From positions 25,484 through 89,483 of the forward strand of contig BGZN01000003.1 in NCBI GenBank assembly GCA_003864455.1: a DNA stretch of 64,000 nucleotides, read 5' to 3'. Below the pieces are notes generated by a model, which saw only the letters and a program-made list of their open reading frames with translations, made no database searches and was not told where the DNA came from. The translations under genes and the position numbers were made by a program. Origin of the DNA: Candidatus Termititenax aidoneus (GTDB taxonomy: Bacteria > Margulisbacteria > Termititenacia > Termititenacales > Termititenacaceae). This document shows, one piece after another, positions 11,445-45,271 of the stretch (positions are counted from its first letter, which is position 1; each line of letters opens with the position of its first letter).

Positions 11445-11609
11445 AGTTTTTGGCGTACCTGCGCTAAAAATCCAGCATTTTCTGTATTTAAACATCTAAC
11501 AAATTTCTCCTGCGTAACGTAATTTTTGCGATGTCTCGTCGGTCTCGACGGTTCGACAGGCTCACCGTCCGAGGCTCGGTCAATACAAAACACACAAAGG
11601 AGAAAAGAT

Positions 11610-12908: not shown

Positions 12909-12945
12909 CGACAAAAGGGACAGGCACGCATCAGGATTAAGCAGG

Positions 12946-13254
12946 TTGATTGAAAACAATCTGGTCGGTACTAATGAACTGATCTTGACCGAATTATTGC
13001 CGGCTGTTTGGCATCAGAAAGAGCACAAATTGGCGGAATTGCTGAACGCTTTGCCAAAGTACCCTCTGCGCATTGATTGGGACGAGCTACGCTCCTGGCA
13101 AGCCCTCAATCTCAAAAAGGGTTTTAACAACATTGGCATTCCAGATTTATTGATCGCTCAAAATTGCTTGCAAAACCATTTGCAGATTTTCAGCCGCGAC
13201 AAACATTTTCGCTGGCTGGCCAAACATTTGCCGTTGGAGTTATACGCCGGTTGA
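12946..13254 (+). CDS. Possible PIN-domain (VapC-like) fragment, 102 aa, TTG start, no clear RBS; may be a gene remnant
   Basis: C-terminal GIPDLLIAQNCLQNHLQIFSRDKHF resembles the C-terminal acidic motif region of PIN domains. The N-terminal catalytic Asp region was not identified. Confidence 0.25.
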   Translation: MIENNLVGTNELILTELLPAVWHQKEHKLAELLNALPKYPLRIDWDELRSWQALNLKKGFNNIGIPDLLIAQNCLQNHLQIFSRDKHFRWLAKHLPLELYAG

Positions 13255-27899: not shown

Positions 27900-28217
27900 A
27901 TGCCAAAACTTAAATTTACGCAGAACAGCAAAACTTACGAAGCGTGCGGCACGGATTTTCAAATACGCGTTTGGCAGGAATTGCGCAAGATCCCCAGAGG
28001 GCAAGTTATTACTTACGCGGAATTGGCGCGGCGCGCAGGCCGCCCGCGCTCCGCGCGGGCCGCGGCGAACGCCTGCGGCGCCAATCCGCTGCCGGTCATA
28101 GTTCCCTGTCACCGCGTTATCCGTGGCGACGGAGGTTTGGGCGGATACTCAGGAGTCGGCGGCGTGCGGAGAAAACGCGAATTGCTGCGCAAAGAGGGTT
28201 ATATTTTACTGGCTTAA
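27900..28217 (+). CDS. MGMT-family protein (O6-alkylguanine-DNA alkyltransferase DNA-binding domain only, YbaZ-like), 105 aa
   Basis: Active-site motif PCHRVI and an HTH (TYAELARRAG) are present. The N-terminal Ada/Ogt domain is absent. Confidence 0.8.
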   Translation: MPKLKFTQNSKTYEACGTDFQIRVWQELRKIPRGQVITYAELARRAGRPRSARAAANACGANPLPVIVPCHRVIRGDGGLGGYSGVGGVRRKRELLRKEGYILLA

Positions 28218-31200
28218 TTTTTTCTCGAGGCGTTTGATGTAATGTTCAGACCGGATTTCACAAAATATTTGCAAGGCTTTATCTAATATTTTTATTCTAT
28301 CGAAATAATTTTCATCGCGGCCTGTGGAATTGAACAACGAAGCGTAGTGGTACATAGATTTGCCCAGTTCATATTTACGGCCGATGAGTTTGCAGTGTTT
28401 TATAGACTGCAAAAATAACTTTTTAGCTTTGTCTTTTTTGTTGACCAGAACATTGTATCTCGCCGCCGCACGCAAAGCTCCGCCGTAATGTGTCGGCCAG
28501 TTTTTAGTCTCCCGTAAAGCTCTTTGGCTGGCTGCCTGAATTTGCCGCAGGAAATTTTCGCTGTCCGGAATTTTAGCCGTGTCGTTTTTATATTTTCGAT
28601 AATAAGCGATCAGGATTTCCGCATGATCATTCAAAATATTGATCGAATACTCTTTATTGAAATTCGCGCCTTCCGCGTTGTAATGCTCGATCGCTTCGGT
28701 GATGTAGCCTTTGGCTTTTTCCAGCTCGCCTTTTTCTAGGTAAAGCATGGACAGCTCGGTCAGCACATTGCAAAGCATTTGCTGTTCATCGCGTTTGTAC
28801 AATTCACGGGCATAACCTAAAGCGGTCAGGCCGGATTTTTCCGCTTGTTCCAGACTGCCTGTTTCAGCCCGAAGACTCAATTGCATCAAATTAGCGGAAG
28901 CCAGGCCGTAAGTGTCATTAGCCCTGGTTACGCGCACAAAGTATTTTTTGTTTAATTCATCGGCTGCGGGGTATTTGGCCAGCGCGTAATACACATAAGA
29001 CATGGAGGTTTGCACGCGGGCGATATGCTCGTTGTCGCCGGCTATGGAAAAATATTTAAGGCTTTTTTCCAGATAATGCTGGGCGCGGCGAAAATCCGCT
29101 TTTAGCCAGAGATAATTATAGGCCGAAAACTGATAAAGCTGCCCTAGACCAAAAGCGTTTTTGTTTTTCTCATTTTTTCCATACAGAATCTCAGCTTTTT
29201 CAAAGTATTTTTGCGCGGAATTAAACTTGCCGAGATTGAGCATGATAAGGCCTAGGCCGCAGTAACTTAAAGCTTCTTCACTGGATTTAGGCAGAAAATG
29301 TCTGGCGATGCCGTTCATTTTCAAAATACAATAGGTTAGTTTTAACCGATCGGTCGTGGAATAATTCCAGGCCAGCGTATTATAGAACCAGATTTTTTGC
29401 GCCGCGCGTTCCTTATCTGCCCGGGATTGTTCTGACGGAAAACTGGCCATAACGTCCAGCAACTGCAGGGCTAAATAGCCTTTCGTAACTCTTTCGGGAA
29501 AACTTTCCTCCAAAATTTTTAAACCATTCAGGCCGTAATATTCACAACTGCTGTAATTGGCTTGTTTATAATACGCGGCGCATAAAAAACTGTAAGCTCT
29601 GGCTTTATCCGGCGGTGAATTTAAAAAAGGCATAATTTTGTTGAGCAGATTTTCCGCTGACGCGACCTGTCCGACCACCAAATACAATTCGGCTAATTTT
29701 AAACCGGACTGGATATGTCCTTCTGAACCTTCCTGCGTGCTGGCGACTACAGACTCCAGCACATTGATCGCTTCTGCATAGGCAAAACCTTGAGCATGCT
29801 TCAGCGCGGCAGTATAACCGTGTTTCCAGGATTGATCCAGGATTACGGCGGATTGACTGTTTTGTGCGTGATAATAAAGGTCTTCGGCCTGCTCAGTTTT
29901 CTCTTCTGTGGTCAAACGGCCGTCCAGAAAATTTAAAGCGGCGGCATGTACAACGCTGCGGATTTTTTCCGGCAGATCATTCAAAAGCACCTGCCGGATA
30001 TAGTCATGGACAAAAACGATTTCATTTTGGTCGTTCAAGCGCACCAACTGAGCCTCCACAGCGTTGCGGATCTTAGTGGCGTTTAATTTCGGACATAGCC
30101 TGCTAAGGTCTTCAACAGTCAGGCTTTGCGCGCCGACCGCCGCGGCATAAATTAGCAAAGCTTTAGTCTCATTATCTAAAACATTCAGTTTGTCATGTAT
30201 CGAATCTTTGGTCAGCGGCGCAATAGAGATTCTTTCAGCCCGTTCTTCCGAGAAAGTCCATTGATTGTTTTTTAAGTAAAGAACCGGCGGGTCTATGGCG
30301 TTCTTTTCTGTGTTGGCGCTTTTTAGTTGTTTGACAATCTCCAGCGCATAGAAAGGATTGCCGCCGCTTTTTTTCTGCACCCAGTTGGCCAGGGCGGAAA
30401 TAGAGCTGTTCCTTTGCTGCAGCTCATTGACGATCATTTTTTCCGTGTCCCGTAAATTAAAATTTTGCAGAGCCAATTCTTTGGCGCTGGCCAGTAAATT
30501 TTCCTTGAGAAAATCAAAATTGACATGCAGCAAAGGCTGGATTTCTTTGTAGGTGCAGACCAGCAGCAGATAAGAACTGGCTAACTGTTCGCGGGATAAT
30601 TTTTCCAAAACTTCCTTGGAATATGAGTCGAGCCATTGTAAATCATTCAGCACGATGACCATGCCCTGTTCAGCCGCGGCCAGACAGAGCAAAAACCGGA
30701 TAAATATATTGCAGAATTTAAGCTGTTCGCTGGAAGAGGTGTCCATTTTGACTGAAAAAGACAAATTTTCGTCATTAAGGTTTAGATCGAGCAGTTCGCC
30801 TAATTGCGGAGCAAAACTCTGAATTTCTTTTTCATAATCTATGCCGTAGTTTTCCATCTGTTTTTTTAGCTCGGCTGAAATCGCTGCTTTTTTGTCGTGA
30901 GGATAACTTCTAAAACGTTTGATATACGTGATCAGTATTTGTTTGAAAGCCAGATAAGGCTGTTGCCGGTCGCCTAGTTCGAATCCGCCTTCCATAAACG
31001 GCTTGAGATTTGCTTTGGCAATAGGTTTCAACTGGCCGGCCAGAGCGGTTTTGCCAATGCCGGATTCGCCGCTGATTATATATACGTTGCCTTGTTTTTG
31101 CAGCGCGCTGTGGAAAGCGTTTTTTAATTGTTTTACTTCAGCAAGGCGTCCGACAAAATTTTCTCCGGAAGGAAAAGCGCTAAGGTTAGACGAGACACCC

Positions 31201-31253
31201 TGCGCTAAAAGCTCTCGATTTGAGTGAATTACTTTATGATGCATAACGTACAA
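28206..31253 (-). CDS. STAND-type NTPase (AAA_16 P-loop + long TPR-like helical C-terminus), 1015 aa, no recognisable DNA-binding or effector domain
   Basis: FVGRLAEVKQL…ISGESGIGKTAL resembles the AAA_16/MalT-type N-terminus. The ~900 aa repetitive helical region has TPR character. The gene is lower in GC than its neighbours. Confidence 0.65.
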   Translation of the reverse strand: MYVMHHKVIHSNRELLAQGVSSNLSAFPSGENFVGRLAEVKQLKNAFHSALQKQGNVYIISGESGIGKTALAGQLKPIAKANLKPFMEGGFELGDRQQPYLAFKQILITYIKRFRSYPHDKKAAISAELKKQMENYGIDYEKEIQSFAPQLGELLDLNLNDENLSFSVKMDTSSSEQLKFCNIFIRFLLCLAAAEQGMVIVLNDLQWLDSYSKEVLEKLSREQLASSYLLLVCTYKEIQPLLHVNFDFLKENLLASAKELALQNFNLRDTEKMIVNELQQRNSSISALANWVQKKSGGNPFYALEIVKQLKSANTEKNAIDPPVLYLKNNQWTFSEERAERISIAPLTKDSIHDKLNVLDNETKALLIYAAAVGAQSLTVEDLSRLCPKLNATKIRNAVEAQLVRLNDQNEIVFVHDYIRQVLLNDLPEKIRSVVHAAALNFLDGRLTTEEKTEQAEDLYYHAQNSQSAVILDQSWKHGYTAALKHAQGFAYAEAINVLESVVASTQEGSEGHIQSGLKLAELYLVVGQVASAENLLNKIMPFLNSPPDKARAYSFLCAAYYKQANYSSCEYYGLNGLKILEESFPERVTKGYLALQLLDVMASFPSEQSRADKERAAQKIWFYNTLAWNYSTTDRLKLTYCILKMNGIARHFLPKSSEEALSYCGLGLIMLNLGKFNSAQKYFEKAEILYGKNEKNKNAFGLGQLYQFSAYNYLWLKADFRRAQHYLEKSLKYFSIAGDNEHIARVQTSMSYVYYALAKYPAADELNKKYFVRVTRANDTYGLASANLMQLSLRAETGSLEQAEKSGLTALGYARELYKRDEQQMLCNVLTELSMLYLEKGELEKAKGYITEAIEHYNAEGANFNKEYSINILNDHAEILIAYYRKYKNDTAKIPDSENFLRQIQAASQRALRETKNWPTHYGGALRAAARYNVLVNKKDKAKKLFLQSIKHCKLIGRKYELGKSMYHYASLFNSTGRDENYFDRIKILDKALQIFCEIRSEHYIKRLEKKLSQ

Positions 31254-31311
31254 TCCATTTCTTGCGCTTCATGTTAGCATGATAAGCAAAATAAAAACAA
31301 TGAGTTAAAAA

Positions 31312-32367
31312 CTACAGGCCGAGGAGTTTTGCTATTTCCTGAATGTCCGCGCTGCTTTTGCTGACCGGCGGAGCGACCGCGATGGCGCGGTCCGGGTCTT
31401 TGAGGCCGTGGCCGGTGAGCACACAGACGGCGGTTTCTCCGCTTTGAAAAAATCCTTCCCGCGCTTTTTTGAGCAGACCGGCGATCGAGGCGGCGGAAGC
31501 CGGCTCGCAAAATATGCCTTCGCGCGCGGCCAGTTTGATCTGGGCGGACGTGATCTCCTCGTCGCTGACTTTTTCGATGATCCCGTGCGATTCGTCGCGC
31601 GCGGCCTCGGCTTGTTTCCAGGAAGCGGGATTGCCGATCTTAATCGCCGTGGCAATAGTGCGCGGATCTTTGATCGGGTGGCCGTCGACTATCGGCGCGG
31701 CTCCGGCGGCTTGAAAACCCAGCATTTTGGGCAGAGCTTTTATTTGTCCGGCGGCTTGCCATTCCTGATAACCTTTCCAGTAGGCGGTGATATTACCGGC
31801 GTTGCCGACCGGCAGGCAGTGATAATCCGGCGCGCGGCCAAGCTGCTCGGCTATTTCAAAAGCGCCGGTTTTTTGGCCATCGATGCGGTGAGGATTGAGC
31901 GAATTAACCAGCGTAACCGGATATTTTTCGCTGATAATTTTTACCGCGGCGAGCGCATCATCAAAATTGCCGTCGATAGCGATGACTTTCGCGCCTTGGA
32001 TCATGGCCTGCGCCAATTTGCCCAGCGCGATATTGCCGTCTGGTATCAGGACAAAACATTTCAGACCGGCGCGCGCCGCGTAAGCTGCCGCGGAAGCCGA
32101 AGTGTTGCCGGTCGAGGCGCAGATCACTGCTTGAGAACCGGCTTCCGCGGCTTTGCTAATCGCCAAAAACATGCCGCGGTCTTTGAAAGAGCCGGTGGGA
32201 TTAAGGCCTTCAAACTTCACGTAAACATTGAGGTCTATTTTTAACTCTTGCCGCACAAAATTTTGTAATTTGATAAGTGGCGTGTTGCCTTCGTGCAGCG
32301 TGATATTCGGCGTTTTGTCCGTGACGGGCAGATATTTCCGATATTTATCCAGTAAACCGGTCCACAT
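31312..32367 (-). CDS. thrC: Threonine synthase
   Basis: PLP-lysine motif FEGLNPTGSFKDRGM plus conserved TGNTSASAAAYAARAG. Start chosen at MWTGLLDKY (32367); the ORF-track N-extension looks spurious. Confidence 0.88.
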   Translation of the reverse strand: MWTGLLDKYRKYLPVTDKTPNITLHEGNTPLIKLQNFVRQELKIDLNVYVKFEGLNPTGSFKDRGMFLAISKAAEAGSQAVICASTGNTSASAAAYAARAGLKCFVLIPDGNIALGKLAQAMIQGAKVIAIDGNFDDALAAVKIISEKYPVTLVNSLNPHRIDGQKTGAFEIAEQLGRAPDYHCLPVGNAGNITAYWKGYQEWQAAGQIKALPKMLGFQAAGAAPIVDGHPIKDPRTIATAIKIGNPASWKQAEAARDESHGIIEKVSDEEITSAQIKLAAREGIFCEPASAASIAGLLKKAREGFFQSGETAVCVLTGHGLKDPDRAIAVAPPVSKSSADIQEIAKLLGL

Positions 32368-32581
32368 GGGCGGTATTATAGCAATTGTCCTGATAAAGGG
32401 ACAGGCATAATTTTGGCATAGGCATAATTTTGGGTATAATTTTAAATTTTGGGACACAACTTTAACTTTAGTACCCAATTATGACTAGAACTTTTTTTGT
32501 TTAGATAAGCCAAATTACATAGTTTGGATAATTTTTACGAGATTTTTGCCAACTGGCATTTTTCTTGCTGTTTTCTAAAAT

Positions 32582-33265
32582 ATGGCACGAATTGCAAGAA
32601 TAAAACCTGTAGGACAGATATACTCGGTAGTTACCAGAGTGAATAATTCTGATTTTGCGTTTGCGGATCGCTCTGTATGCACTGCATTTCTCAAGCATGT
32701 AAAAGAAATAAAGGCCGAGCTTGGTTTTAAGCTTTATGCTTTTGTGCTTATGTCTACACATGTGCATCTCTTGATAGAGCCAAACGAGGCAATCGCGGAT
32801 ATTTCAGAAATTATGTGCCGGATCAACGGGCTGTTTGCCAAAAAATACAATGCTTTCCACAAACGTAAAGGGCATTTCTGGATGCAGAGATTTGGTAGTA
32901 AACTGGTGGAAATGGGGCAATATTTTACCAATACAATTGTCTATTTTATGCTCAATCCGGTAAAGGCTGGAATTACAGATAATCCGCTGAAATATGAATA
33001 CAGCAGCATACATAATATTATTTCCGGTAAATTTTCTGATCTGCTGGACAGGCTTCCACAGGCCTGTGTTGAATATATAAAAGATTTTCTGCGTCAGAAA
33101 AATTTTGTAAAAGTATTGAATAAATGCAAACGCTTCTTGCGGCGGTTCAGTTTTAATCTGCGAAAAACAAGGCGAGAGCAAAAGTTCAGGCATTTTATTG
33201 GCGGCCAACAATTCTATGAGCGATGTATGAAGAGATATATAAATCTTTGTGGCCAGAGTTGTTGA
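32582..33265 (+). CDS. IS200-like/REP-associated tyrosine transposase (Y1 HUH transposase, RAYT-like), 227 aa
   Basis: HUH motif LMSTHVHLLIE and the conserved …FWMQRFGSKLV…Y… C-terminal region. No IS terminal structures are evident around it. Confidence 0.75.
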   Translation: MARIARIKPVGQIYSVVTRVNNSDFAFADRSVCTAFLKHVKEIKAELGFKLYAFVLMSTHVHLLIEPNEAIADISEIMCRINGLFAKKYNAFHKRKGHFWMQRFGSKLVEMGQYFTNTIVYFMLNPVKAGITDNPLKYEYSSIHNIISGKFSDLLDRLPQACVEYIKDFLRQKNFVKVLNKCKRFLRRFSFNLRKTRREQKFRHFIGGQQFYERCMKRYINLCGQSC

Positions 33266-33436
33266 GCTGCCACAGGGAAACTAGCGTCCCAAAATAGAAA
33301 ATTTAGTCAAGAGCGACAAAATCAACACGTCAAATTTTCCAAAAAACGCATGATGTATAGTTTTATACAATAAATCTCAGGAAATTTCTGTAATTACGGC
33401 AGAGAAAATCGGGTAAATGTTAATGTTGCTGCGTGC

Positions 33437-33540
33437 CAGTGCCAAATATGCCAATATGCCCAAGTATGCCTGTCCCTTGTCCGTCCCTTGTCCGGGAATG
33501 GGAATGTGCCTGTCCCTTTTCGTCGTCCCTTTTCGTGTGC
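33437..33540. repeat. Cluster of short direct repeats upstream of miaA (ATATGCC x3; GTCCCTTGTCC x2; GTCCCTTTTCGT x2)
   Basis: gccaaatatgccaatatgcccaagtatgcctgtcccttgtccgtcccttgtccgggaatgggaatgtgcctgtcccttttcgtcgtcccttttcgtg read directly. Confidence 0.6.
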
Positions 33541-33560
33541 TTTCTTTGTTAAAATACGCT

Positions 33561-34451
33561 ATGCGGAAAATCACTCTCATCGTCGGTCCTACCGGCGCCG
33601 GCAAATCGGATTATGCGGTATGTCTGGCGCTGGAACAAAGCGCCGCGATTATCTCGGTGGACGCTTTTCAGGTCTATCGCGGTCTGGACATTGGCACAGC
33701 CAAACTGACTTTATCCGAGCGAAAAGGCGTGCCGCATTACGCCATAGATATTGTCGAGCCGGCAGAGGGTTTCTCTGTGGCGGACTACATTACTTATGTT
33801 TCCAGGCTGCTGGCTGGCGAATTGAGGGACAGGCATATTGTTTTTTGCGGAGGTACGGGATTTTATTACAATGCCTTGATAAATGGTCTGTGCCTGTCCC
33901 TTTCTGTGAAAGACGAAACTGTGCGCCGGAGACTGCGTGCGCAGGCCGCGGAAAAAGGACGGGAGTGGCTGTGGGGCGAATTAAAAAAAGTCGATACGGA
34001 AGCCGCCGCGAAAATTCACGCCAACGATTTATTTAGAGTAGTCCGCGCGCTGGAGGTTTATGAGTTGACCGGCCAAAAAATTTCCGCCCAGCAAAAAAAA
34101 CAGCCGTCAATTTTGGGGACAGGCACGACAGGCATAGATGCTCATATCGGCTACCGCATCATCGGCCTGACCATGCCGCGCGCGGAACTTTATGCCAGAT
34201 TGGACGCGCGCGTGGATAACATGTTCGAGCGCGGCTTGCTAGACGAGGCGCGCGGTCTGCTTGCGCGCGGCTGTACAGCCGAGTTATCATCTATGCAGGC
34301 GATCGGCTACAAGGAGGCGTTGCGTTATTTGCAGGGACTGAGCAGCCGAGAAGAAATGCTCGCGGACATTAAACAAAACACGCGCAATTTTGCCAAACGG
34401 CAGTACACCTGGTTTCGCGCGTTTAAAAATGTGGAGTGGCTAGAACTATGA
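33561..34451 (+). CDS. miaA: tRNA dimethylallyltransferase
   Basis: P-loop ITLIVGPTGAGKS and the conserved DAFQVYRGLDIGTAK. Start chosen at MRKITLI (33561). Confidence 0.9.
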   Translation: MRKITLIVGPTGAGKSDYAVCLALEQSAAIISVDAFQVYRGLDIGTAKLTLSERKGVPHYAIDIVEPAEGFSVADYITYVSRLLAGELRDRHIVFCGGTGFYYNALINGLCLSLSVKDETVRRRLRAQAAEKGREWLWGELKKVDTEAAAKIHANDLFRVVRALEVYELTGQKISAQQKKQPSILGTGTTGIDAHIGYRIIGLTMPRAELYARLDARVDNMFERGLLDEARGLLARGCTAELSSMQAIGYKEALRYLQGLSSREEMLADIKQNTRNFAKRQYTWFRAFKNVEWLEL

Positions 34452-35275
34452 ACTTTGTCAAACTCGAAGGTCTGGGCAACGATTTTATTTTGTTTGACGC
34501 GCTGAAAGATGACTTGAGCGCGATTAACTTTCATGAATTAGCGCCAAAACTCTGCAACCGGCATTTCGGCATCGGCGCGGACGGACTGCTCATCGTGCGC
34601 AAATCCGAAAAAGCCGATTTTTATATGCAGGTCATCAATGCCGACGGCTCGGAGCCGCAAATGTGCGGCAACGGTATACGTTGTTTCGCGCGCTACGTTT
34701 ATGAAAATTACGCAAAAAAAAGCGTGATCTCGGTAGAAACTCTGGCCGGTATTATGCTGCCGGTGCTGGACCCCAAAAACAATATTATCGAAGTCGATAT
34801 GGGCGAGCCAATACTGGAGCCGGCGCGCGTGCCGGTCAAATTTTCCGGCGAAAAAATGCTGAATGCGCCGGTGCCGGTTTTAGACCAGACTTTTGCGATT
34901 ACCGCGGTTTCGATGGGCAATCCGCACGGCGTGATTTTTGTCGCTGATGTGTCCGCGGTAAATGTGCCGGTTTACGGTGCGGCTCTGGAGACGCACGAGA
35001 TATTTCCTGAGAAAGCCAATATTGAATTTTGCCAGATACTGTCGCGCGGTGAAATCAAAATGCGCGTCTGGGAGCGCGGCGCTGGCGAAACTCTGGCCTG
35101 CGGCACCGGAGCTTGTGCCGCGGCGGTGGCTGGCGTGCTGACCGGCCGTCTAGACCGCGATGTTACAGTGCAATTGGCCGGCGGCATTTTAAAAATTTCC
35201 TGGGACGCTGACGACAATCGCGTGTCGATGTCCGGCCCGGCTTTTCAGGTTTTTAAAGGAGAAGTGGTTTTATAA
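34448..35275 (+). CDS. dapF: Diaminopimelate epimerase
   Basis: MNFVKLEGLGNDFILFD and the active-site motif CGNGIRCFARYV. The ATG overlaps the miaA stop (ATGA). Confidence 0.9.
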   Translation: MNFVKLEGLGNDFILFDALKDDLSAINFHELAPKLCNRHFGIGADGLLIVRKSEKADFYMQVINADGSEPQMCGNGIRCFARYVYENYAKKSVISVETLAGIMLPVLDPKNNIIEVDMGEPILEPARVPVKFSGEKMLNAPVPVLDQTFAITAVSMGNPHGVIFVADVSAVNVPVYGAALETHEIFPEKANIEFCQILSRGEIKMRVWERGAGETLACGTGACAAAVAGVLTGRLDRDVTVQLAGGILKISWDADDNRVSMSGPAFQVFKGEVVL

Positions 35276-35276
35276 A

Positions 35277-36464
35277 ATGGTCAGCCGCAATCCCAATTTT
35301 GCCAGACTGCAGGCCGGATATTTGTTTCCCGAAATCGCCAGACGCCGCCGCGCTTTGCTGGAAAAACAGCCCGACGCCAAAATCATCAGCCTCGGCATCG
35401 GCAATACTACCGAGCCGCTGACGCCGATAGTCACCAAAGCTTTGACGGAAGCGGCCGCGCGGCTGGGCACGGCGGACGGTTATTCCGGCTACGGCGATGA
35501 ACAGGGGCTGCCAGCCCTGCGCGAGCAAATCGCCAAAGTTTTGTATCAAGACCTGATCCGCGCGGAAGAGATCACTATTTCCGACGGCGCGAAATGCGAC
35601 ATCGGGCGGCTGCAAATTTTGTTTGGCGGCCAAGTGACTGTGGCCGTGCAAGACCCGGCTTATCCGGTCTATGTCGACGGCTCGATTATCGCCGGCGCGG
35701 ACTCCGGTTTGCAATATATGACTTGTCGGCCGGAAAATGATTTTTTTCCGGATCTGGGCAAATTGCCGCGCGTGGACTTGATCTATTTTTGCTCGCCAAA
35801 TAATCCCACCGGCGCGGCGGCTACCAAAGCCCAGTTGGTAGAATTGGTAAAGTTTGCCCAAAAGAATAAATCCATAATAATTTTTGACGCGGCGTACAGC
35901 GAATTTATCACGGACAAGAATTTGCCGCGGAGCATTTATGAAATAGACGGCGCGGACGAGGTGGCTATTGAGGTCAATTCTTTTTCCAAATCGATTGGCT
36001 TTACCGGCGTGCGGCTGGGCTGGTGCATTGTGCCTAAAAAAATAAAATTTGCCGACGGGACGCTAGTCGGTCAGGACTGGACGCGCGTTATCACCACGCT
36101 TTTTAACGGCGCGTCAAATATTGCTCAAGCCGGCGGTCTGGCCGCGCTGACCGCCACCGGGCGTCAGGAAACCAAAACGCTGCTTGCCTATTATCAGGAA
36201 AACGCGCGGCTCATTTGCGAGGGCTTGCAGGCTTTGGATATTCAGATTTACGGCGGGGTTAATTCTCCATATATTTGGGCGCATTTCCCGGCGCAAAAAT
36301 CCTGGGATATTTTTGAGAAAATTCTTAACGAAGCCCACGTCGTAACCACGCCGGGCGCCGGTTTTGGCCCTGCGGGAGAGAATTTTGTCCGGTTTAGCTC
36401 ATTTGGCCGCAGGGCGGATATACAGGAAGCGGTGCGGCGGTTAAGCAATGTGTTAAAAAATTGA
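35277..36464 (+). CDS. dapL: LL-diaminopimelate aminotransferase (DapL pathway)
   Basis: N-terminal …NFARLQAGYLFPEIARRR… is characteristic of LL-DAP aminotransferases. Fold-type I aminotransferase with SFSK lysine. Confidence 0.8.
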   Translation: MVSRNPNFARLQAGYLFPEIARRRRALLEKQPDAKIISLGIGNTTEPLTPIVTKALTEAAARLGTADGYSGYGDEQGLPALREQIAKVLYQDLIRAEEITISDGAKCDIGRLQILFGGQVTVAVQDPAYPVYVDGSIIAGADSGLQYMTCRPENDFFPDLGKLPRVDLIYFCSPNNPTGAAATKAQLVELVKFAQKNKSIIIFDAAYSEFITDKNLPRSIYEIDGADEVAIEVNSFSKSIGFTGVRLGWCIVPKKIKFADGTLVGQDWTRVITTLFNGASNIAQAGGLAALTATGRQETKTLLAYYQENARLICEGLQALDIQIYGGVNSPYIWAHFPAQKSWDIFEKILNEAHVVTTPGAGFGPAGENFVRFSSFGRRADIQEAVRRLSNVLKN

Positions 36465-37336: not shown

Positions 37337-40300
37337 ATGTATCAGTATTTGCTTAAAGTGATTTCCGATATAGCAGGCCCGCCGGCTACAGGGAGAATTG
37401 TTAACCCAAATGTCCCGAATCCTCATAATAATGCAGGGCAGCCGGTTTTGGAAACAGCGCTGAGCCCGTATTTGAATGCGCTGGTTAAAGAAAGTAGTTA
37501 TGTTAAAGGTTTTACACTGCAAGAAAATGGAATTGAGCCTAATATTTTCGCCTACAATATAGACGTGTTCGTAGAAGGATTAGGAAACCCTTTTAAAGGC
37601 GTAGTGATTTATCATGATGTTGATGTTGTTGGAGGAAAGAAAGGCGAGCCTTATCTGGCTGTGGTGAGGGACGCCGCCGGAAATCTGAAACTTTATCAGG
37701 CCAGTCCTGAAAATGTGGCAGCCGGAATAGATAGAATAGTTATTGGAGCTGAAATAACGAATAGCAGAGTGGAAACAGGTGCAAATGGGGAGATTACCGG
37801 AGCGGTGGTAGGGGTGGCGGATATTGTGCCGCACAACGATGGTCTGTCTGAAGCTGCCAGAATAGGAACTGGCGCGGCTGAGAGAATTACCGGAATAAAT
37901 TATATCAATAATATTGATGGCGAGGCTCTTAGTGTAAAAGAAATAGAACGGCTGAGAGTTGCCGGACGTTTGGCGGAAATTCCCAATATAAGCGCTTATG
38001 TAGATGATGTAAATAAAATGTTGACGGAAACTCATTCTATTTCACTGCGGCATAGAGAGGGGCCGCTGGGAATAATCGACTGGGCGGAAAACGGATTGGA
38101 AGGCTTAAAAGAATTCTTAGTGCTCACTAAAGCTTATCCGCGCAAAGGAGTATCTTTTTTAGCTAATGCCACGGCCTTTTTGAGCGTGCTGACACCGCAT
38201 CTGTCTATGCTTGGGAATCAGCAAGTCGCTCCTTTCTTTGCCCTTTTGTTCTTTCAATATTTTTATGGTTCGATTAATTATTTTAATAACAGTATGCGGC
38301 TTTTTGAGAAAGATAGTTATGAATCCAATATAAGCTCGGGCGAAAGTTTTGTGCAAAGGTTGAAACTGGACGAAAAAACGGCTGAGTATTTTAAGGATTT
38401 GTTTTCTAATGCCGCGTTAAAAAGCGGGAAATATAAGAATTTTATAAAACTGATAGAACACACCAAAGGAGCTGACGGCAAAGATCAAGTAAACTCTTTT
38501 GGCGAGAATGCCGGCATTACGGTGGAGAAATTTGCGGACGGCAAGATGACTTTAACTATCAATTATGGCATAGCCGACGAGAATAATGAGGTCTGGCGGC
38601 ACTTTATCCAAGAAGATGTCCTGCAGACAGCCAGGGAACAATTGACCGATCTGAAAAGCAATTGGCCAAAATATAATGGCGGAGCAGTCCCTGCTGAGAC
38701 TTCTCCCGAGTATGCGCAATATCTAAAGTCTCCCGAATATAAGGCTTATAAAAAAAGCGCTGAGGGAAAAAAATATAAAAGCCTGGAGGCTATCGTTGGC
38801 ATTATGGAGTCTGTGTATAAACAATCTCAAATTCGCTTTCTCTTGCCGCAGGCCGGCCGCAGGCAGCGCGCGCGCGCTGGTTTTTGGCTTTTTGATTTGA
38901 AAGAGCTTGGCGTAAAAGACGGTTTTCAACTGGCGGGCGACTTGGCCGGCGGTTTGGGCGCTTATATCCATGAGCCTGGTAAAGAAACAGACAATCGGCG
39001 GCTTTTGCAGATCAATTATCATTTGAAAACCGCGGAATTGGAGAATCTAATAAAAGCTTTAAGCGCAAATGGCGCGGATGAAGCGGCGATACAGAAAATA
39101 CGGATTGCTTACAAGATAGTTTCTCAAAACTTCTATGCGGATGCCCAGGGCAATCCAAATTACCAGATACCTGTAGATCAGCGCGCGACACAAGTGGCTA
39201 CGGATCGGCTGACTTTTACTTCTGCTCCGGTGTGGGATGTTCTTCAAGATATTTACACTGCGGCTGAGCAGGAATTTCATACTTTTATGCGCCTGCAAAG
39301 CAATATTCAAAACAACAGCAACAATTCTCTGGATGACGCTCAATCTAGAGGTTTGGAAATAATGGGACGCGACACCGAAGCGTGGAAAAATGCGATGCGG
39401 GCTGTTTTGCTGGAAGGCGGTGTTACGGGAGAGTTGTTTGCGGCGGTGCAGGATTTAAAAAAGCAACTGGCAAATAAAACCGGCTTAACACAGGCTGGCG
39501 TCAATGCGGCTATTGATAGCGCGGCTTTTAAAGACAAGATTCGCGGAATCATAACGAATTATTTTTCAGCTGGCGGCGATCTAAATATCGGGGCTAGAGT
39601 CGACGGCATTTTAAAAGACCTGAAGCAGGAATTTACTATTGATGCAAACGGCAAACTGCAAACTAATGATTATGGCGTAGGGAACACTTTGTTTTATTAT
39701 GTTCTCCTAAATGGCGCGGAAGCCGGACGGGATCTGCGCAGTGTGAACATATTTGAGTTTTTTACGCAGTTGGCTGATGCTTACGGCCGGCATATACCAA
39801 TGTCGGCGATTTTGGCGGAAGCTGTAGCCAAAGCTTTTCCGTCCGATGATTATTCCCGCGATCAGATACGCAAAGCCCTGAATTTTTGTTATCTAAACGG
39901 CAATATGTTGCTGGATGAGCAGTTATACGTAGAGGACGGCCGTTACAAAGGCCGGCAGTTGTGCATAGACCCGCGCCGCGCCGAAGACAGAAATGCCAAA
40001 AAAGCAGATTCGGCGGTGTCGCTGGAGGATTATTTGATGGAGTTCTTCTTCGGAGATGCTGTAAAAGCGGAAGATTATAAAAAGCATCCTGAAAATATGT
40101 ACAGCTTAAACAGGATAGATATTAAGAATTTCGTGAATATTTTAAATCATAAAATAGCTGTTCAAAAACGAGCGGAATACTTTGCCGAACTGACGTTTAA
40201 ATTGAGAACCGGCGACTCGATGAGCCAAACGGAGATCGACAATTTGGTTACTATGCTTACCGAACGCTACAGCATGGAAGAATTTACGGCCAGGCAATTG

Positions 40301-43300
40301 ATCGATTTTCTACAGACAGGGGCTGTGCGCGGCGCTATCGAGACCAGAACAATGGCTTATGAAAATGCTTTCATAGGCTTTGATAGATTAAATAATGTTA
40401 ATTTTATGAGCGATTTCGCTCCGGAAAAGAAGCGGGATATTTACCTCGCTCTGATGGCCTATCAGAAATGGCAGACTGCTAAACATCATAATAAGAAACC
40501 TACTGCCGTGGAAGGGTTGGAAGCGGTTGATCCGGCAAGACTAAGAGACAAAATAGAGAGAGAGAATTTAAAACAAGAGTTAATCCAAGCGTTTGGTTCA
40601 GCAGAAATAGCGGAAGCTATGCTGAGCACAGACTTTTTTAATGCCGATAAAACTTCCGGCGGCATACGGTATACGTTCCGCGCCTCGATAGAGTATGACA
40701 TCAGGCTGGCTTTTTGCCAGGCTATGCAGCGGCTGTATCACGACAATCGGGTGTATGTGCTGGAGCATCCTGCGAATGTAATGAATAAAGAGAAAATAGA
40801 GAAAAAAGAGGTTAAACTTTCGAATCAGGCGATCAAAATAATCAGCGAAAAACCGTTTAAGGGCGAGATAGAATTTGTGCATTCCAAAGATTTAGGAAAT
40901 GGCAAACGTGAGGGCCAATTAATTGTTGCCGCTGCCAATTCCAAAGAGTTTTTGGATTTAATTATGAACCCGGGGTTGACTCCTGATGATCGCAACGAAT
41001 TAATGAGAATCTATGAGGAGTATCATTATTTGAAAGCGGAATATGCGAAAGCGAAAGAGTCCTCAGGCGATAAAACGGTGCCCTTGTCTAAGGGAACGCT
41101 AGAATTGATCCGGAACAAATATAAAGATATTGTTTCTCCCAATGATGATAACAATGATGCAAAAAAAGTAATCTTGTCTTTTACAAATGATTCTTACAGC
41201 ATGATTGCCCTGCTTTGCGATCCGAGCCTGGATAATGTGCAGGATGCGGAAGCGCTGCGCAAAGTGTTTGCGGACTATTTGGAAATAGCCGTGATCAACC
41301 GGACTATTGAGCTGAGCAAGGCGGCTTTTGCTGTGCTGGACGCGCATAGATTTAATGTAGCTGAAATGCGTGAGTACATGGACGAACTGGCGCGGGCAAA
41401 CCCCTATTTGGCTACGCTGGAGCCTAGACTACAGTATCAACACGCCATGCGGGAAATGCATAAAAAAATACGCAATGAACTGGTAAATAGTTTTGGCGAA
41501 TTTTTTGTCGGCCTAGAACAGGAAGCAGAAATGAATAAGCTGGTGGATACGCTGATGGACGCACTGGCTGAAGGCGAAGCGTTTCAAGAAGCTTCGACTA
41601 ATGGCTTGCTGCAACAAACCAATATGCTGGTTTTAAGCGTGGCGCAGTTGCATAACAAAACAATAATGAACACGAACTCTGCTTTGGGAGAGATGACTAG
41701 AACCAGCAGAGATGAAGTCAATAGCTTGTTGAACAACCGTCCTGAAAAGGTAATCGAAACCTCGGAAGGCAAAACAGAACCAAACCCCCAAAGAGAGATT
41801 TTTGATATGTTCTATAACCTGCTTAAATCTTTTGGCGGAAAAAAACTGACCGGACTGGCCACCGGCGCTTACTGGACAGTGCCTTTTGATATCGCGGCGA
41901 AAGGCCTGGCTGGAGATGTGTACCGCGCTATGAATGATGAGAAAAGACACGCTGGTTTTGGCGTAAATCAAGGTGTTCGCGCTGCGTCCGATTTTGGCGA
42001 ATATGTGGCCGAGACTGCTCTCGGCGGCCAAGAAGGGCATAATATGGTTGACATCAAGGGCAATGGAGACAGGCCGATAGCGATATTCTCCCTGGATAAT
42101 ATTGTCGGCGCCAGCAATATTCATCCCGTGCTGCTGGATCTGACCAGCCAAAAATTTATGCAGAACGGCAAAGTGCGTAGTATTTCGGATATGCATACAC
42201 AGGGCTTTATCAGTAATGAAGCTTGGGATATGCAACAAGAGTATGAGGTCTTGCATGATCGGTTTCTGGAATTAACTAATGAGAGCCTCGGCCGTTTTCT
42301 TACTGCAGCAGAAGAGCGGGAATACCTGGATTTAGAGGCTAAATTTGACAGCGGCAAAATATTTGCTGACGCCGCAAAACAGCAGAAATATGAGGATTTT
42401 TTGATTTTGGCCGGAGCTGCCGGAAAAGACTGGAAAGAATTAAACGGTCATGAGACGCGGGTTTTGAATGATTGTGCCGCGCAATATTTGCGTAAGATAT
42501 TTGAGGCCGCCGGCTTGCCGTCTGCTGCGGAAGGGCATTGGAGCGAATATGATTTGCAAAAAATCATTGATAGCGCCAAAGATTTATTGGCTGCGGAGAA
42601 TGATTTCCGGACCGCATTGGATGAGCTTTTGGCTACGCCGGAGATCGGCCTGAATAGAGACACGGCGATGGTAGCTGTGGATATGCTGTATAAAACATTT
42701 TTAGAAGAAGGAAATGACAATAAAGCGCTCAAAGTAGCCGGCAGCAAAGATGATCTTGGCAAACTGCAGTCCGCAGGGTTTATAGCGATAGATCCGCGGT
42801 TGTTTATTACAAAGTATCATGAGTTGCAAAACGGCAAAGGACACAGTATCAAAGGGACAGACAAGGATCAGCCGGATCTAAATTATTTGACGTCAAACAC
42901 TCTAGGTGATTATATTTTTGCGGCGGCGGATCAGGCTGTTAATTCTGGCTGGCAGACGGAGGCAAGAGAGGCCACGGGCGAGCCGGAAACGATGTTTTGG
43001 CTGGACAGACCGGCAGTCTCGATGGACAGCACTTTGAAGCCGGATACTCTGACCATGGCTTTTACCGGACGGACGCCTTTTGAGAATATGCAGAAGTTGA
43101 TTAAAACGGTTATTCAGTACTGGCGTGAACGGAATGGCGCATATGATCTGAAGACAACTTGGAAAAGATATAAAGAAGAAATGATGTACGACACTATCTC
43201 CGCTACGTTCCAGAATATGTGGTATCGCGGCAATCTTTATCCTTTTTTGCCGGTTTTAGATCAAGTGTTTGCTGAAATGGATAAACTCGATATAAAAAAT

Positions 43301-45271
43301 GCGCAAGGCCAGACGGTAAAAATGTTTTCGCAGAATAATTTGCGCGAACTTTTTGATCTGGATAATAATGGAACTTACAACTATAACCATGAGTTGGACA
43401 TGCAGCGCAATGGCAACAAAAAGCTGGATGAGATTTTTAAACAGGTAATGGAAAAAATACTGGATAAGAATAATCCCAATCCTCTATTTGTTGTGGGCAG
43501 CCGGGAATGGCAGACGCTGGTCTTGACCAATGCCGCCGAAGTAACCATCCGGGAAAAAATTGACGCGGTAGTGCAGGGCACTTTGGATAAAGATTTCAAA
43601 ACTTATTTATTTTATCTAGAGGGCGTTTACAATCTCTGGAAGCCGCGCTTGGACGGTACGCTGGTCAATGTCAACAGTATTCTAGCGCAAGCCGAACAGG
43701 AAATGATGTATACGCTTTTCAATAGTCTCCAGCTCGGCGGACATGTGGATATGCAAATGTTTAATTACATTGCCGCTTATGTGCAGGGACAGATGGGCTG
43801 GGAGCAGGACCAGGGCTGTTCCAATTTCCATCTGCTTAAATGGGATGCTTATTTTCATATGACCCGTATGGCTCTGGAGTTTGCCGCGGCGCCGGCAAAT
43901 ACTCCGCCCAATCTGCGAACCAAATTTATGGTGGAGACACTGCCTTATCTGAGCAGCACAGGGATCATGATGGGGCTGGCTTTAGTCTTGTCCGCTCTGA
44001 ACGCGCCAATGCTGCTGAGCGCCGGTGCACTGCCTGTGGCGCTGCATCAGATGCTGACCAAGTTTGTGCCTCGGTTTCAAGATTGGATACGCGCCAAAGC
44101 GAAGACCACTGAATTATCGGTTAATGCTTTTTATCCCAGTGTCTTGCGCTGGACTCTGGATCTCGTAAAAAAATATTCCGCGGTGGAGGATGCGCGTTCG
44201 CAGACAGAGCAAATTAAATGTTATGACGCTTATGGCCGGCATATCTTTACCATACCCGGCGGCGCTATCGCGGAAGGCGATTGGGCAGTGGCTTATGGCC
44301 AAATGTTCCGCTGGTTTGGGGCGGACACCGAGCTGCGGGTCGTGGAAGGAATAGACGGCAAGCGGTATGAATTGCAAATTAAAAGCAAGAGACTATCCAA
44401 CGCTATTTACCGCCGTTATGTGCAGCATTATAAAGAGGCCGAACAGCATGTGCAGTTTCCCTTGTCCACAAACTACAATTTGCGCTTCCCGACCTTGATG
44501 ATGACCACGCCGCTGGTGGGCATGTCGATGTTTAATTTTAAATCTTCTTTCTTGTCCAACGGTTTGGGAGGCGTGTTTGGCGCTTTGGGCGTTTCGCCTG
44601 AATCTTCCCAGCAGTTTGGCTCGTATGGTGCGATAGGTCTGGTTTCCGCTCTGGCCTTGGTTCATTATTATGGGATACAAAATCAGATCAAACAGACTTA
44701 CGCCAGCTCGGGCGTAACAGAACGGGCGGCGCAGATGGCGGAAGACCGCGCCAATCTTAATGACGGCAAAATGATCGACACCCGTCTGGAAAATGTGCTG
44801 GTTTCTTTTTCCAAAGCGGCGTTTAACACTACAGAGCCGCTGGCTATTCCGGAGTACAAATCTTTTGACGAATTTTATCTAAACCGCGCGGAGAATGATC
44901 TGGCAAAACTAAAAGCAGCGGTGAGTGCCCTGAATTTGATGACGGATAATACCGGACATATTGCTGCTCGAGAGGAATTGTTCGGCCATAAGCTTAGCCG
45001 GATACGGCACTGGTGGAAATTGCATGCTCCGAATGGCGCATTTAATGTGTCTGTCGGGCTGCCCATAGCCACCGCGATTGGTTTGGGTATACAGCATTTT
45101 GCTTATGGCACAGAGCCTCTGATGATACCGCTGCTGGCAGCGGGTTTTGCTGTGCCTTGGTTTGCAAAGCTTTCGCAGAAAAAACTCTTTCTAAGTCCAA
45201 AATCCTATATGAATGAACACGGACTGGTAGGCGTGGCAGGCAAGAAAAAATATGAAGGCACAATAGAATAG
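37337..45271 (+). CDS. Giant protein A, 2644 aa, no signal peptide, several C-terminal hydrophobic helices, no recognised domain
   Basis: RBS taggagtaagg. One uninterrupted ORF. C-terminal hydrophobic segments (GIMMGLALVLSALNAPMLLSAGALPVAL; GLGGVFGALGV…AIGLVSALALV; VSVGLPIATAIGLGI…LMIPLLAAGFAVPWF). Confidence 0.8.
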   Translation: MYQYLLKVISDIAGPPATGRIVNPNVPNPHNNAGQPVLETALSPYLNALVKESSYVKGFTLQENGIEPNIFAYNIDVFVEGLGNPFKGVVIYHDVDVVGGKKGEPYLAVVRDAAGNLKLYQASPENVAAGIDRIVIGAEITNSRVETGANGEITGAVVGVADIVPHNDGLSEAARIGTGAAERITGINYINNIDGEALSVKEIERLRVAGRLAEIPNISAYVDDVNKMLTETHSISLRHREGPLGIIDWAENGLEGLKEFLVLTKAYPRKGVSFLANATAFLSVLTPHLSMLGNQQVAPFFALLFFQYFYGSINYFNNSMRLFEKDSYESNISSGESFVQRLKLDEKTAEYFKDLFSNAALKSGKYKNFIKLIEHTKGADGKDQVNSFGENAGITVEKFADGKMTLTINYGIADENNEVWRHFIQEDVLQTAREQLTDLKSNWPKYNGGAVPAETSPEYAQYLKSPEYKAYKKSAEGKKYKSLEAIVGIMESVYKQSQIRFLLPQAGRRQRARAGFWLFDLKELGVKDGFQLAGDLAGGLGAYIHEPGKETDNRRLLQINYHLKTAELENLIKALSANGADEAAIQKIRIAYKIVSQNFYADAQGNPNYQIPVDQRATQVATDRLTFTSAPVWDVLQDIYTAAEQEFHTFMRLQSNIQNNSNNSLDDAQSRGLEIMGRDTEAWKNAMRAVLLEGGVTGELFAAVQDLKKQLANKTGLTQAGVNAAIDSAAFKDKIRGIITNYFSAGGDLNIGARVDGILKDLKQEFTIDANGKLQTNDYGVGNTLFYYVLLNGAEAGRDLRSVNIFEFFTQLADAYGRHIPMSAILAEAVAKAFPSDDYSRDQIRKALNFCYLNGNMLLDEQLYVEDGRYKGRQLCIDPRRAEDRNAKKADSAVSLEDYLMEFFFGDAVKAEDYKKHPENMYSLNRIDIKNFVNILNHKIAVQKRAEYFAELTFKLRTGDSMSQTEIDNLVTMLTERYSMEEFTARQLIDFLQTGAVRGAIETRTMAYENAFIGFDRLNNVNFMSDFAPEKKRDIYLALMAYQKWQTAKHHNKKPTAVEGLEAVDPARLRDKIERENLKQELIQAFGSAEIAEAMLSTDFFNADKTSGGIRYTFRASIEYDIRLAFCQAMQRLYHDNRVYVLEHPANVMNKEKIEKKEVKLSNQAIKIISEKPFKGEIEFVHSKDLGNGKREGQLIVAAANSKEFLDLIMNPGLTPDDRNELMRIYEEYHYLKAEYAKAKESSGDKTVPLSKGTLELIRNKYKDIVSPNDDNNDAKKVILSFTNDSYSMIALLCDPSLDNVQDAEALRKVFADYLEIAVINRTIELSKAAFAVLDAHRFNVAEMREYMDELARANPYLATLEPRLQYQHAMREMHKKIRNELVNSFGEFFVGLEQEAEMNKLVDTLMDALAEGEAFQEASTNGLLQQTNMLVLSVAQLHNKTIMNTNSALGEMTRTSRDEVNSLLNNRPEKVIETSEGKTEPNPQREIFDMFYNLLKSFGGKKLTGLATGAYWTVPFDIAAKGLAGDVYRAMNDEKRHAGFGVNQGVRAASDFGEYVAETALGGQEGHNMVDIKGNGDRPIAIFSLDNIVGASNIHPVLLDLTSQKFMQNGKVRSISDMHTQGFISNEAWDMQQEYEVLHDRFLELTNESLGRFLTAAEEREYLDLEAKFDSGKIFADAAKQQKYEDFLILAGAAGKDWKELNGHETRVLNDCAAQYLRKIFEAAGLPSAAEGHWSEYDLQKIIDSAKDLLAAENDFRTALDELLATPEIGLNRDTAMVAVDMLYKTFLEEGNDNKALKVAGSKDDLGKLQSAGFIAIDPRLFITKYHELQNGKGHSIKGTDKDQPDLNYLTSNTLGDYIFAAADQAVNSGWQTEAREATGEPETMFWLDRPAVSMDSTLKPDTLTMAFTGRTPFENMQKLIKTVIQYWRERNGAYDLKTTWKRYKEEMMYDTISATFQNMWYRGNLYPFLPVLDQVFAEMDKLDIKNAQGQTVKMFSQNNLRELFDLDNNGTYNYNHELDMQRNGNKKLDEIFKQVMEKILDKNNPNPLFVVGSREWQTLVLTNAAEVTIREKIDAVVQGTLDKDFKTYLFYLEGVYNLWKPRLDGTLVNVNSILAQAEQEMMYTLFNSLQLGGHVDMQMFNYIAAYVQGQMGWEQDQGCSNFHLLKWDAYFHMTRMALEFAAAPANTPPNLRTKFMVETLPYLSSTGIMMGLALVLSALNAPMLLSAGALPVALHQMLTKFVPRFQDWIRAKAKTTELSVNAFYPSVLRWTLDLVKKYSAVEDARSQTEQIKCYDAYGRHIFTIPGGAIAEGDWAVAYGQMFRWFGADTELRVVEGIDGKRYELQIKSKRLSNAIYRRYVQHYKEAEQHVQFPLSTNYNLRFPTLMMTTPLVGMSMFNFKSSFLSNGLGGVFGALGVSPESSQQFGSYGAIGLVSALALVHYYGIQNQIKQTYASSGVTERAAQMAEDRANLNDGKMIDTRLENVLVSFSKAAFNTTEPLAIPEYKSFDEFYLNRAENDLAKLKAAVSALNLMTDNTGHIAAREELFGHKLSRIRHWWKLHAPNGAFNVSVGLPIATAIGLGIQHFAYGTEPLMIPLLAAGFAVPWFAKLSQKKLFLSPKSYMNEHGLVGVAGKKKYEGTIE

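Follow-up and report, generated by a model that had tools for sequence, protein, structure and literature searches.

The window, that is, the whole analysed stretch of 64,000 nucleotides from contig BGZN01000003.1 of the termite-gut bacterium Candidatus Termititenax aidoneus (Margulisbacteria), was found to contain a short repeated DNA motif clustered around a gene for a Y1/HUH protein and inside the neighbouring, essential-type tRNA dimethylallyltransferase gene, miaA. Judged from sequence, the motif is probably the cognate flanking repeat of this protein, which would be a TIRYT-type relative of the repetitive extragenic palindromic (REP)-associated tyrosine transposases (RAYTs), and the locus would be a TIRtron. 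TIRtrons are RAYT-like genes flanked by terminal inverted repeats (TIRs) which are not REPs, and the encoded proteins are termed TIRYTs (Di Nocera et al. 2013, PMC3733652). The Y1 gene of the window appears to be single-copy and domesticated-looking. From lineage to lineage the motif accompanies the gene, with motif copies facing inward on both sides, and additional copies and partial tandem duplications have built up in the few kb around the gene. Coding DNA has received copies through in-frame insertion at the third miaA site and in an XRE-family regulator gene of a homologous locus (L001), whereas at miaA sites 1 and 2 pre-existing near-matches were perfected without change of length. The coordinates of the features are collected in Table 1.

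Table 1. Features of the motif cluster and its surroundings in the window.
Feature	Coordinates	Strand	Remarks
Isolated motif copy AAAGGGACAGGCAC, B-type	12914..12927	+	intergenic
thrC	31312..32367	-	first in the gene order thrC, Y1, miaA, then dapF
Left flanking copy AAAGGGACAGGCATA, A-type	32395..32409	+	184 nt upstream of the Y1 ATG, reading inward
Tandem partial duplications of the motif 3′ half	32403..32443	+	AGGCATAATTTTGG x2 (17-nt period), then GGTATAATTTT
227-aa Y1/HUH protein, RAYT-like, probably TIRYT-type	32582..33265	+	HVH 60-62, Tyr121 in YFMLNP, SS 141-142
Segment CACAGGGAAACTAGCGTCCCAAAATAGAA just after the Y1 stop codon	33268..33296	+	DNA-level conservation across homologous loci
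Right flanking copy, A-type, plus strand TATGCCTGTCCCTTG	33465..33492	-	then GTCCCTTGTCC x2
Second right flanking copy, B-type, plus strand TGTGCCTGTCCCTTT	33505..33536	-	then GTCCCTTTTCGT x2
miaA, tRNA dimethylallyltransferase, 296 aa from the start common to homologues	33561..34451	+	hosts 3 motif copies
miaA site 1 AGGGACAGGCATA, codons RDRH	33825..33837	+	no length change vs orthologues
miaA site 2, plus strand TGTGCCTGTCCCTTT, codons CLSL	33889..33903	-	no length change in the window
miaA site 3, motif + 27-nt (9-codon) in-frame insertion	34116..34148	+	boundaries ambiguous

The decamer GGGACAGGCA, or TGCCTGTCCC on the other strand, was found in seven exact copies in the window (12917+, 32398+, 33467-, 33507-, 33826+, 33891- and 34116+) against an expectation of 0.05 per window, and seven copies were reached in none of 100 dinucleotide-preserving shuffles. 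Six of the seven copies were located within 1.8 kb, or about 3% of the window, for which a binomial estimate gives a chance of about 3e-9, and the remaining 62 kb contained the copy at 12917 only. When one mismatch was allowed, just three more matches were obtained, and these were scattered over the window. The rarity and the clustering of the seven copies, claimed by the first-pass annotation, were thus borne out; six of its positions were right and the last copy starts at 34116 instead of 34115. The direct repeats that it had reported next to the copies are also present, including the double GACAGGCAC/GACAGGCAT at 34118-34135.

The decamer extended to 11-12 nt (AAGGGACAGGCA) was found to be the top repeated 11-mer/12-mer of the window when low-complexity words were excluded, and the full motif extends over about 13-15 nt as AAAGGGACAGGCA[T/C]A. 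Across the homologous loci described below, the conserved core was G[G/T]GACAGG[C/T][A/G]. The flanks beyond the motif differed from copy to copy, the 5′ flank being A-rich, and no GTAG or GTGG tag was found adjoining the motif copies. As DNA, single copies with their flanks showed no folding beyond that of shuffled sequence (z -1.14, +0.33 and -0.31), and inverted doublets were found to fold as strong hairpins (z -6.5 in homologous locus L005 and z -5.0 in L001). An Rfam search of positions 31000-36000 gave no match at E<=1. The identity of the motif as a canonical REP was ruled out by the single copies, which contain neither a hairpin nor a GT[AG]G tag, and since single copies are non-palindromic and lack a GTAG tag, a TIRYT/TIRtron fits better than a canonical REP/RAYT pair. 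The RAYT-associated, REP-like family suggested by the first-pass annotation is therefore essentially right: the motif follows Y1 orthologues in inverted arrangement, but it is of a non-palindromic TIR type without the REP hairpin.

A search of genome contigs with the Y1 protein led to one locus, L001, and a metagenome search with the family alignment gave mostly relatives at <=43% identity, which served as negative controls. The homologous loci span 50-85% identity of the Y1 protein and have different neighbours, and they were found to contain plus-strand copies upstream and/or minus-strand copies downstream of the gene, with the A-rich 5′ flank and the inward orientation retained. The nearest upstream copy was located 44-184 nt before the start codon and the nearest downstream copy about 150-210 nt after the stop codon. 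L001, from a metagenome-assembled genome of Margulisiibacteriota, encodes a Y1 protein 77% identical to that of the window among wholly different neighbours, and within 4 kb of the gene it was found to contain 12 exact copies of the variant AAAGGGACAGGTAAA (also given as GGGACAGGTA) and one copy of GTGACAGGTA, with plus-strand copies upstream and minus-strand copies downstream; no motif copies were found in the rest of its 19.5 kb. L002 and L003 (85% identity) have the same thrC, Y1, miaA synteny as the window and contain inward-facing copies, and the same inverted layout was found in L004 (58% identity, variant GGGACAGGTGC), L005 (51% identity, variant GTGACAGGTAC) and L006 (59% identity), followed by L007, in which the layout was seen downstream of the Y1 gene. 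The motif variants (CA, TA, TGC and GTGACAGGTAC) were found to be lineage-specific. L002, L007, L008 and L009 derive from termite-gut metagenomes (JGI samples 33000426xx).

In about 50 metagenomic control loci (relatives at <=43% identity), the 8-mer core occurred at chance frequency. The miaA locus of T. persephonae (12.9 kb, no Y1 gene beside miaA) contained no motif copy. In L010, no Y1 gene adjoins miaA and the number of copies is 0. L009 is without the Y1 gene, and one copy was found to be kept next to its thrC at the position homologous to window 32398. As the control loci are at chance level and the motif is absent from the T. persephonae locus, the decamer is no genome-wide bias and is specific to the clade of this Y1 protein. 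The first-pass annotation had held that a decamer common throughout the genome would speak against its significance; what was found is one copy in 62 kb, none in the 12.9 kb of T. persephonae and chance frequency in the controls. At positions 5065-5911 of L009, the gap between thrC and miaA was found to hold a nucleotidyltransferase/HEPN toxin-antitoxin pair in place of the Y1 gene, and the intergenic site between thrC and miaA appears from its gene content to be a hotspot of gene turnover.

Around the Y1 gene of the window, the motif copies were found to be accompanied by direct repeats, namely GGCATAATTTT in three copies, GTCCCTTGTC in two copies with an 11-nt period and GTCCCTTTTCGT in two copies with a 13-nt period. 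The duplication in the left array begins exactly at GGGAC|AGGCAT. The right copy at 33465 is followed by an 11-nt-period duplication of its 5′ half whose unit ends in ...GGGAC| on the motif strand, and the second right copy at 33505 by a 13-nt-period duplication whose unit likewise ends in ...GGGAC|. The segment at 33268-33296 was found to be 81% complementary over 26 nt to 32438-32463, forming an inner inverted repeat (TTTTGGGAC / GTCCCAAAA).

A few further observations concern the same region. The half-motif repeats of the left array make up a sigma-70-like promoter TTGGCA-16-TATAAT (11/12) at 32413-32440, which faces the Y1 gene. The sequence TGGCATTTTTCTTGCT at 32554-32569, 13 nt before the Y1 ATG, is a perfect match to the sigma-54-type -24/-12 pattern (TGGCAY-N5-TTGCW); it is the only one in 64 kb against 0.23 expected, which alone is not significant. 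This match is conserved in L001 and L002 (TGGCAT-N5-TTGCT) and overlaps a small inverted repeat, TGCCA-AC-TGGCA. The segment after the stop codon (CACAGGGAAAYTAGYGTC...) stays conserved among homologous loci although the C-termini of the proteins vary.

Many copies were found to adjoin a tandem duplication of part of the motif together with neighbouring bases. The duplicated units on the 5′ side end at ...GGGAC (window 33476 and 33516; L002) and those on the 3′ side start at AGGCA or AGGTA (window 32403; AGGCAT x2 in L002; AGGTAAATC x3 in L001). About 7 of 12 tandem-duplication breakpoints lie at or within 1 nt of GGGAC|AGG. Nine of the 12 were obtained by the scan, window 32403 and the AGGCAT of L002 were added by eye, and one further scan case is outside the tally. 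The shared breakpoint suggests a nick site inside the motif, and a preferred break-and-join point at this place would be as expected of an HUH nickase. Between the window and L002 the arrays were found to be strongly different though the surrounding sequence aligns, and in L001 a non-coding segment of 118 nt with motif copies on both sides was found to be duplicated 1.5 kb apart (8226-8343 and 9719-9836, 81% identical). The two duplicates in L001 adjoin genes for repeat-rich proteins with weak phage-baseplate/YmaF similarity.

The miaA gene was found to contain three motif copies, and the translations of these stretches given by the first-pass annotation (LRDRHIVF, GLCLSLSV and LGTGTTGIDA) are correct. 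An alignment with 11 relatives and a codon alignment with 4 loci showed that the motif residues are a derived state present in the window, L007 and L008 only; identical sequence at the same codons in unrelated taxa, which the first-pass annotation had considered as a point against the motif, was not found, the motif codons being lineage-specific. At site 1, the counterpart in L009 is ACGGAACGGAAT with an 8/12 match, and the motif is common to the window, L007 and L008 only. Site 2 and the flanking copy at 33505-33519 agree in all 15 nt, and the L009 counterpart of site 2 matches the motif at 8/12 to 9/12, depending on the register. About four substitutions at each of the two sites, relative to L009, turn the near-matches into perfect copies, and the two together form an inverted doublet of 11-12 bp whose 55-nt spacer encodes conserved MiaA residues. 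The folding z of this doublet as DNA was -2.1, compared with +0.09 for the L009 equivalent. In the miaA of L009, with both strands counted, no more than six regions match the 12-mer at >=8/12, and three of these are where the window has its sites.

The insertion at site 3 consists of about three 9-nt units (GACAGGCAC / GACAGGCAT / AGATGCTCA..., i.e. (G)ACAGGCAN), and the insertion point was the ancestral TTGGGACAGGAT, which had 9/12 of the motif (8 of the 10 core bases) in place beforehand. It was found in the window and L007, and was absent from L008, L009, L010 and more distant MiaA proteins. The earlier statement that the miaA copies are without an obvious insertion thus holds for sites 1 and 2 and fails for site 3. 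The codons of the motif were identical in 8 of 8 cases in the three lineages, whereas codons for the same amino acid are just 66-71% identical gene-wide; this identity above the gene-wide level suggests maintenance or ongoing homogenisation. A codon- or protein-level cause of the copies was ruled out, the three copies differing in frame and strand.

Copies in or next to other coding sequences were found in L001, where the one inside the XRE-family regulator gene coincides with an addition of 6 aa in a variable linker, and in L007, where copies are also inserted at and beyond the 3′ end of an aminotransferase gene. The window MiaA is 100% identical to the protein recorded for Candidatus Termititenax aidoneus. 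In the public record this MiaA is given as 344 aa (P0048) with the ATG at 33417 as its start codon, and it thereby spans the entire right-hand repeat array (33417-33560). All relatives start at the equivalent of 33561 (MRKITL...), which makes the first 48 aa of the annotated protein probably spurious.

The Y1 protein was found to match Pfam Y1_Tnp (E 1e-10). It reached 78.9 bits on the NCBIfam model REP_Tyr_transpos (NF047646), whose cut-off is 80, with two homologues at 74-76 bits, and 20.3 bits on the IS200 model (NF033573), whose cut-off is 55. The best match of a profile of 22 homologues to PDB sequences was 4ER8, the TnpA-REP of E. coli, and the AlphaFold model (pLDDT 85.6) likewise had 4ER8_A as its best Foldseek match (E 9e-8, TMt 0.73). 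The residues H60-V-H62 and Y121..N125-P126 (YF[AM]LNP) and the SS motif (YSSI) were invariant across the 22 homologues, followed by an HuH context of (S/A)THVH and a W motif of WM[QE] in the family. About 30 full-length homologues were found at 49-86% identity, followed by a clear gap to the next relatives at <=41%, and each homologue was located on a single contig only.

For residues 141-227, no Pfam helix-turn-helix (HTH) match was found even at E<=1, and the C-terminal 92 aa modelled alone reached a pLDDT of 52.8, too poor for a structure search. In the full-length model the C-terminal helices are confidently placed against the core, and the region is thus probably not an independent domain. 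A related Y1 clade of 283 aa (about 40% identity; L012, L013, L016, L017, L018 and L020) was found to contain weak HTH-family matches at 213-258, and just L020 reaches a Pfam cut-off (HTH_IclR, 22.8 bits against 22). The genes of this clade are flanked and accompanied by a palindromic sequence of about 29 nt, GGAACGGAGGGGACGACCCTTTTCGTTCC, which shares the GGGAC core. By its sequence this layout is REPtron-like, although proteins resembling subclass 2.1 of the TnpA-Y1 family, discussed below, have been reported without REP-like sequences.

Under the preferred explanation of the motif as the flanking repeat of a TIRYT-type protein, the Y1 protein would recognise the motif, probably in the single-stranded form present at the replication fork, like its solved relatives, would nick and rejoin it at or near GGGAC|AGG, and would act with a preference for sites in cis. 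A local 'stutter', with new copies, motif-bounded duplications of segments and occasional in-frame insertions, would follow from cleavage, rejoining or slippage. The substitution-only sites in miaA would most likely be short templated events (template switching or short-patch conversion) from a nearby repeat, after which they were kept homogeneous. Such templated events are favoured over stepwise selection for sites 1 and 2, and the data fit both. The local mutational or recombinational footprint, another suggestion of the first-pass annotation, is accordingly retained for the tandem partial duplications and for the conversion of ancestral near-matches.

Several points weigh against this explanation. 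Motif binding, strand preference and nick site of the Y1 protein are all inferred. With one copy outside the cluster in 62 kb, a 'dispersed repeat family' is weakly supported for this genome. No C-terminal HTH, a typical feature of subclass 2.1, was found, the HuH context reads THVH in place of NHVH, and the protein falls slightly short of the NCBIfam cut-off. The approximately 12 breakpoint cases were chosen for overlap with the motif, and some of them break at motif positions 2, 3, 7 and 8. Sites 1 and 2 fit stepwise point mutation under selection equally well, and an insertion with an exactly compensating deletion in these variable loops is also possible.

A further step, which is possible though rather unlikely, is that the TIRYT-type enzyme itself, or else replication and repair set off by it, 'writes' the motif onto near-cognate sequences by short templated patches, preferentially in cis and maybe by nicking GGGAC|AGG. 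If this were true, a domesticated Y1 transposase would seed and homogenise its own site inside an adjoining housekeeping gene with the length unchanged, and the inverted doublet conserved in miaA would not be debris but a functional unit, REPIN-like and maintained.

Among the other explanations, the one that survives best is an operator array, in which the motif is bound by a transcription factor, possibly the domesticated Y1 protein, which controls the Y1 gene and miaA-dapF without any mobility, the copies arising by ordinary mutation under selection. Several features agree with it: the motif is short and non-palindromic with direct repeats of half-sites about one helical turn apart (11 and 13 nt), copies are present in the promoter regions of both Y1 and miaA with a near-consensus sigma-70-like promoter in the left array, the core is kept across proteins just 50% identical, which is more than usual for REPs, and the miaA doublet came about through substitutions in near-matches, with conservation that extends to synonymous positions. 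It is nevertheless improbable, because copies are also present downstream of genes and, as in-frame insertions, in coding sequences, in both orientations, the 118-nt duplication and the divergence of the arrays between close relatives point to DNA turnover, and the neighbours vary among lineages, which leaves no common regulated target except the Y1 gene. Moreover, a pure DNA-binding regulator would have no need of catalytic HUH and Tyr residues, which are invariant here. The regulator-binding motif named by the first-pass annotation is thus conceivable as a secondary role, but leaves the travel of the motif with the Y1 gene unexplained.

An active insertion sequence (IS) of about 1.1 kb, IS200/IS605-like or other, consisting of the Y1 gene and the inverted copies, with the other copies as solo ends or footprints, is very unlikely. 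The inverted terminal copies are located at a roughly constant distance from the gene, as given above, the genomic contexts vary among distant lineages, and the literature describes group 1 as the RAYT group that most resembles ISs. However, the confinement of each homologue to a single contig, the thrC, Y1, miaA synteny kept at 85% identity while the arrays change, the score of 20 bits against the IS200 cut-off of 55, the Y..LNP in place of Y...Q and the lack of subterminal hairpins all stand against it, and footprints fail to account for multiple intact copies, for both orientations or for the tandem duplications of half-motifs. That chance, or a genome-wide oligonucleotide or codon-usage bias, makes the decamer and that the local cluster is without meaning has a negligible probability: the examined part of the genome comprises 64 kb only, but the shuffles, the different frames and strands of the three miaA copies, the clusters at orthologous Y1 genes in unrelated contexts, including L001, the lack of a copy in the T. 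persephonae miaA locus and the chance-level counts in control loci are all opposed to it, and a chance origin of the cluster was ruled out by the shuffles, L001, the homologous loci and the control-locus counts.

Two observations concern the wider surroundings. The isolated copy at 12914 is located right after the stop codon of an open reading frame (ORF) at 11526-12908 and right before a 5′-truncated PIN-domain ORF at 12946-13254, which covers positions 30-117 of the 120 of Pfam PIN, the first approximately 30 profile positions being absent; the place may hold what is left of a toxin-antitoxin locus cut short at the repeat. The cluster itself lies between a gene for a 1015-aa AAA_16/TPR (STAND-like) ATPase at 28206-31253 and a 2644-aa ORF at 37337-45271.

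TIRYTs, or subclass 2.1, make up the largest RAYT-like group, and within the literature searched the term was found only in two surveys (PMC3733652 and PMC6006769). The present clade provides an unusually clean handle on their binding, cutting and function, with a short, strongly conserved, non-palindromic motif, swappable lineage-specific variants and a candidate nick site. A dated natural experiment is provided by three related lineages whose miaA acquired the motif both by insertion and through the completion of near-matches, and the case bears on the birth of repeat families, the 'de novo formation' question of PMC3733652. The repeat array has also led to the over-extended miaA annotation in the public record.

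Among the known systems, the IS200/IS605 family differs from the present one in that the window protein is below the NF033573 cut-off and contains Y..LNP and not Y...Q, and in that the motif is without hairpins. Rickettsia palindromic elements (RPEs) and intragenic REPs share with it the in-frame additions in loops or linkers which leave the gene intact (9 aa at miaA site 3 and 6 aa in the L001 XRE regulator), whereas RPEs are long palindromic insertions without a dedicated transposase, and two of the three miaA copies are no insertions. In quasi-palindrome or template-switch mutation, clustered substitutions perfect an imperfect repeat, and sites 1 and 2, with approximately four clustered substitutions each, a perfect inverted pair and no length change, resemble its outcome. 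Site 2, however, matches the direct copy at 33505-33519 (15 nt) better than the reverse complement of site 1, and short-patch conversion thus fits at least as well as a template switch.

The REP/REPIN-RAYT systems of E. coli and Pseudomonas resemble the window locus in several respects: the window protein finds its best match, in structure and in sequence alike, in the TnpA-REP of E. coli (PDB 4ER8), the single-copy gene is located between inverted cognate repeats in the REPtron layout, and inverted doublets of the window type are able to fold into long hairpins like those of REPINs. REPs, too, are known to occur in frame within genes. They differ in that the window unit is no palindrome, a REP being an imperfect palindrome of 20-40 nt, and is without a 5′ GT[AG]G, in that the residue aligned with the GTAG-reading Q95 of E. 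coli TnpA-REP lies in WM and not WQ, and in that the motif is apparently low in number and local compared with hundreds of dispersed copies.

The closest likeness is to the TIRtrons. Their TIRs share GGGGWSAS and form moderately abundant families found as singles, dimers and clusters (PMC3733652). Most TIRYTs belong to TnpA-Y1 subclass 2.1, with a median of 238 aa, a Y[IV].LNP motif, an SS tail motif and an HuH of the NHVH type, and a C-terminal HTH (Bac_DnaA_C, HTH_23 or HTH_28) is often present (Quentin et al. 2018, PMC6006769). Subclass 2.1 corresponds to RAYT group 1, whose flanking 16-mers number about 12 per replicon (Bertels et al. 2017, PMC5581495). The window protein agrees with this description in its length of about 230 aa, its Y..LNP and SS tail, its low copy number and its flanking inverted non-REP repeats, and the window-type repeats are likewise moderately abundant and occur as singles, dimers and clusters; GGGGACAG at 34115-34122 fits GGGGWSAS at 8/8 and AGGGACAG at the other copies at 7/8. 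It differs from it in that no HTH is detectable and the HuH context is THVH, in that the conserved unit is very short (13-15 nt) with its copies concentrated within a few kb of the gene, in that copies are present inside a housekeeping gene, two of them without length change, and in that the duplications share a breakpoint. The host phylum Margulisbacteria is new for this kind, membership being judged by the published motif descriptions. As read from the sequence, what is new is the site 3 insertion in miaA and the conserved inverted doublet of sites 1 and 2 that arose without length change, and the system adds a new example to a kind of repeat system that is known but little understood.

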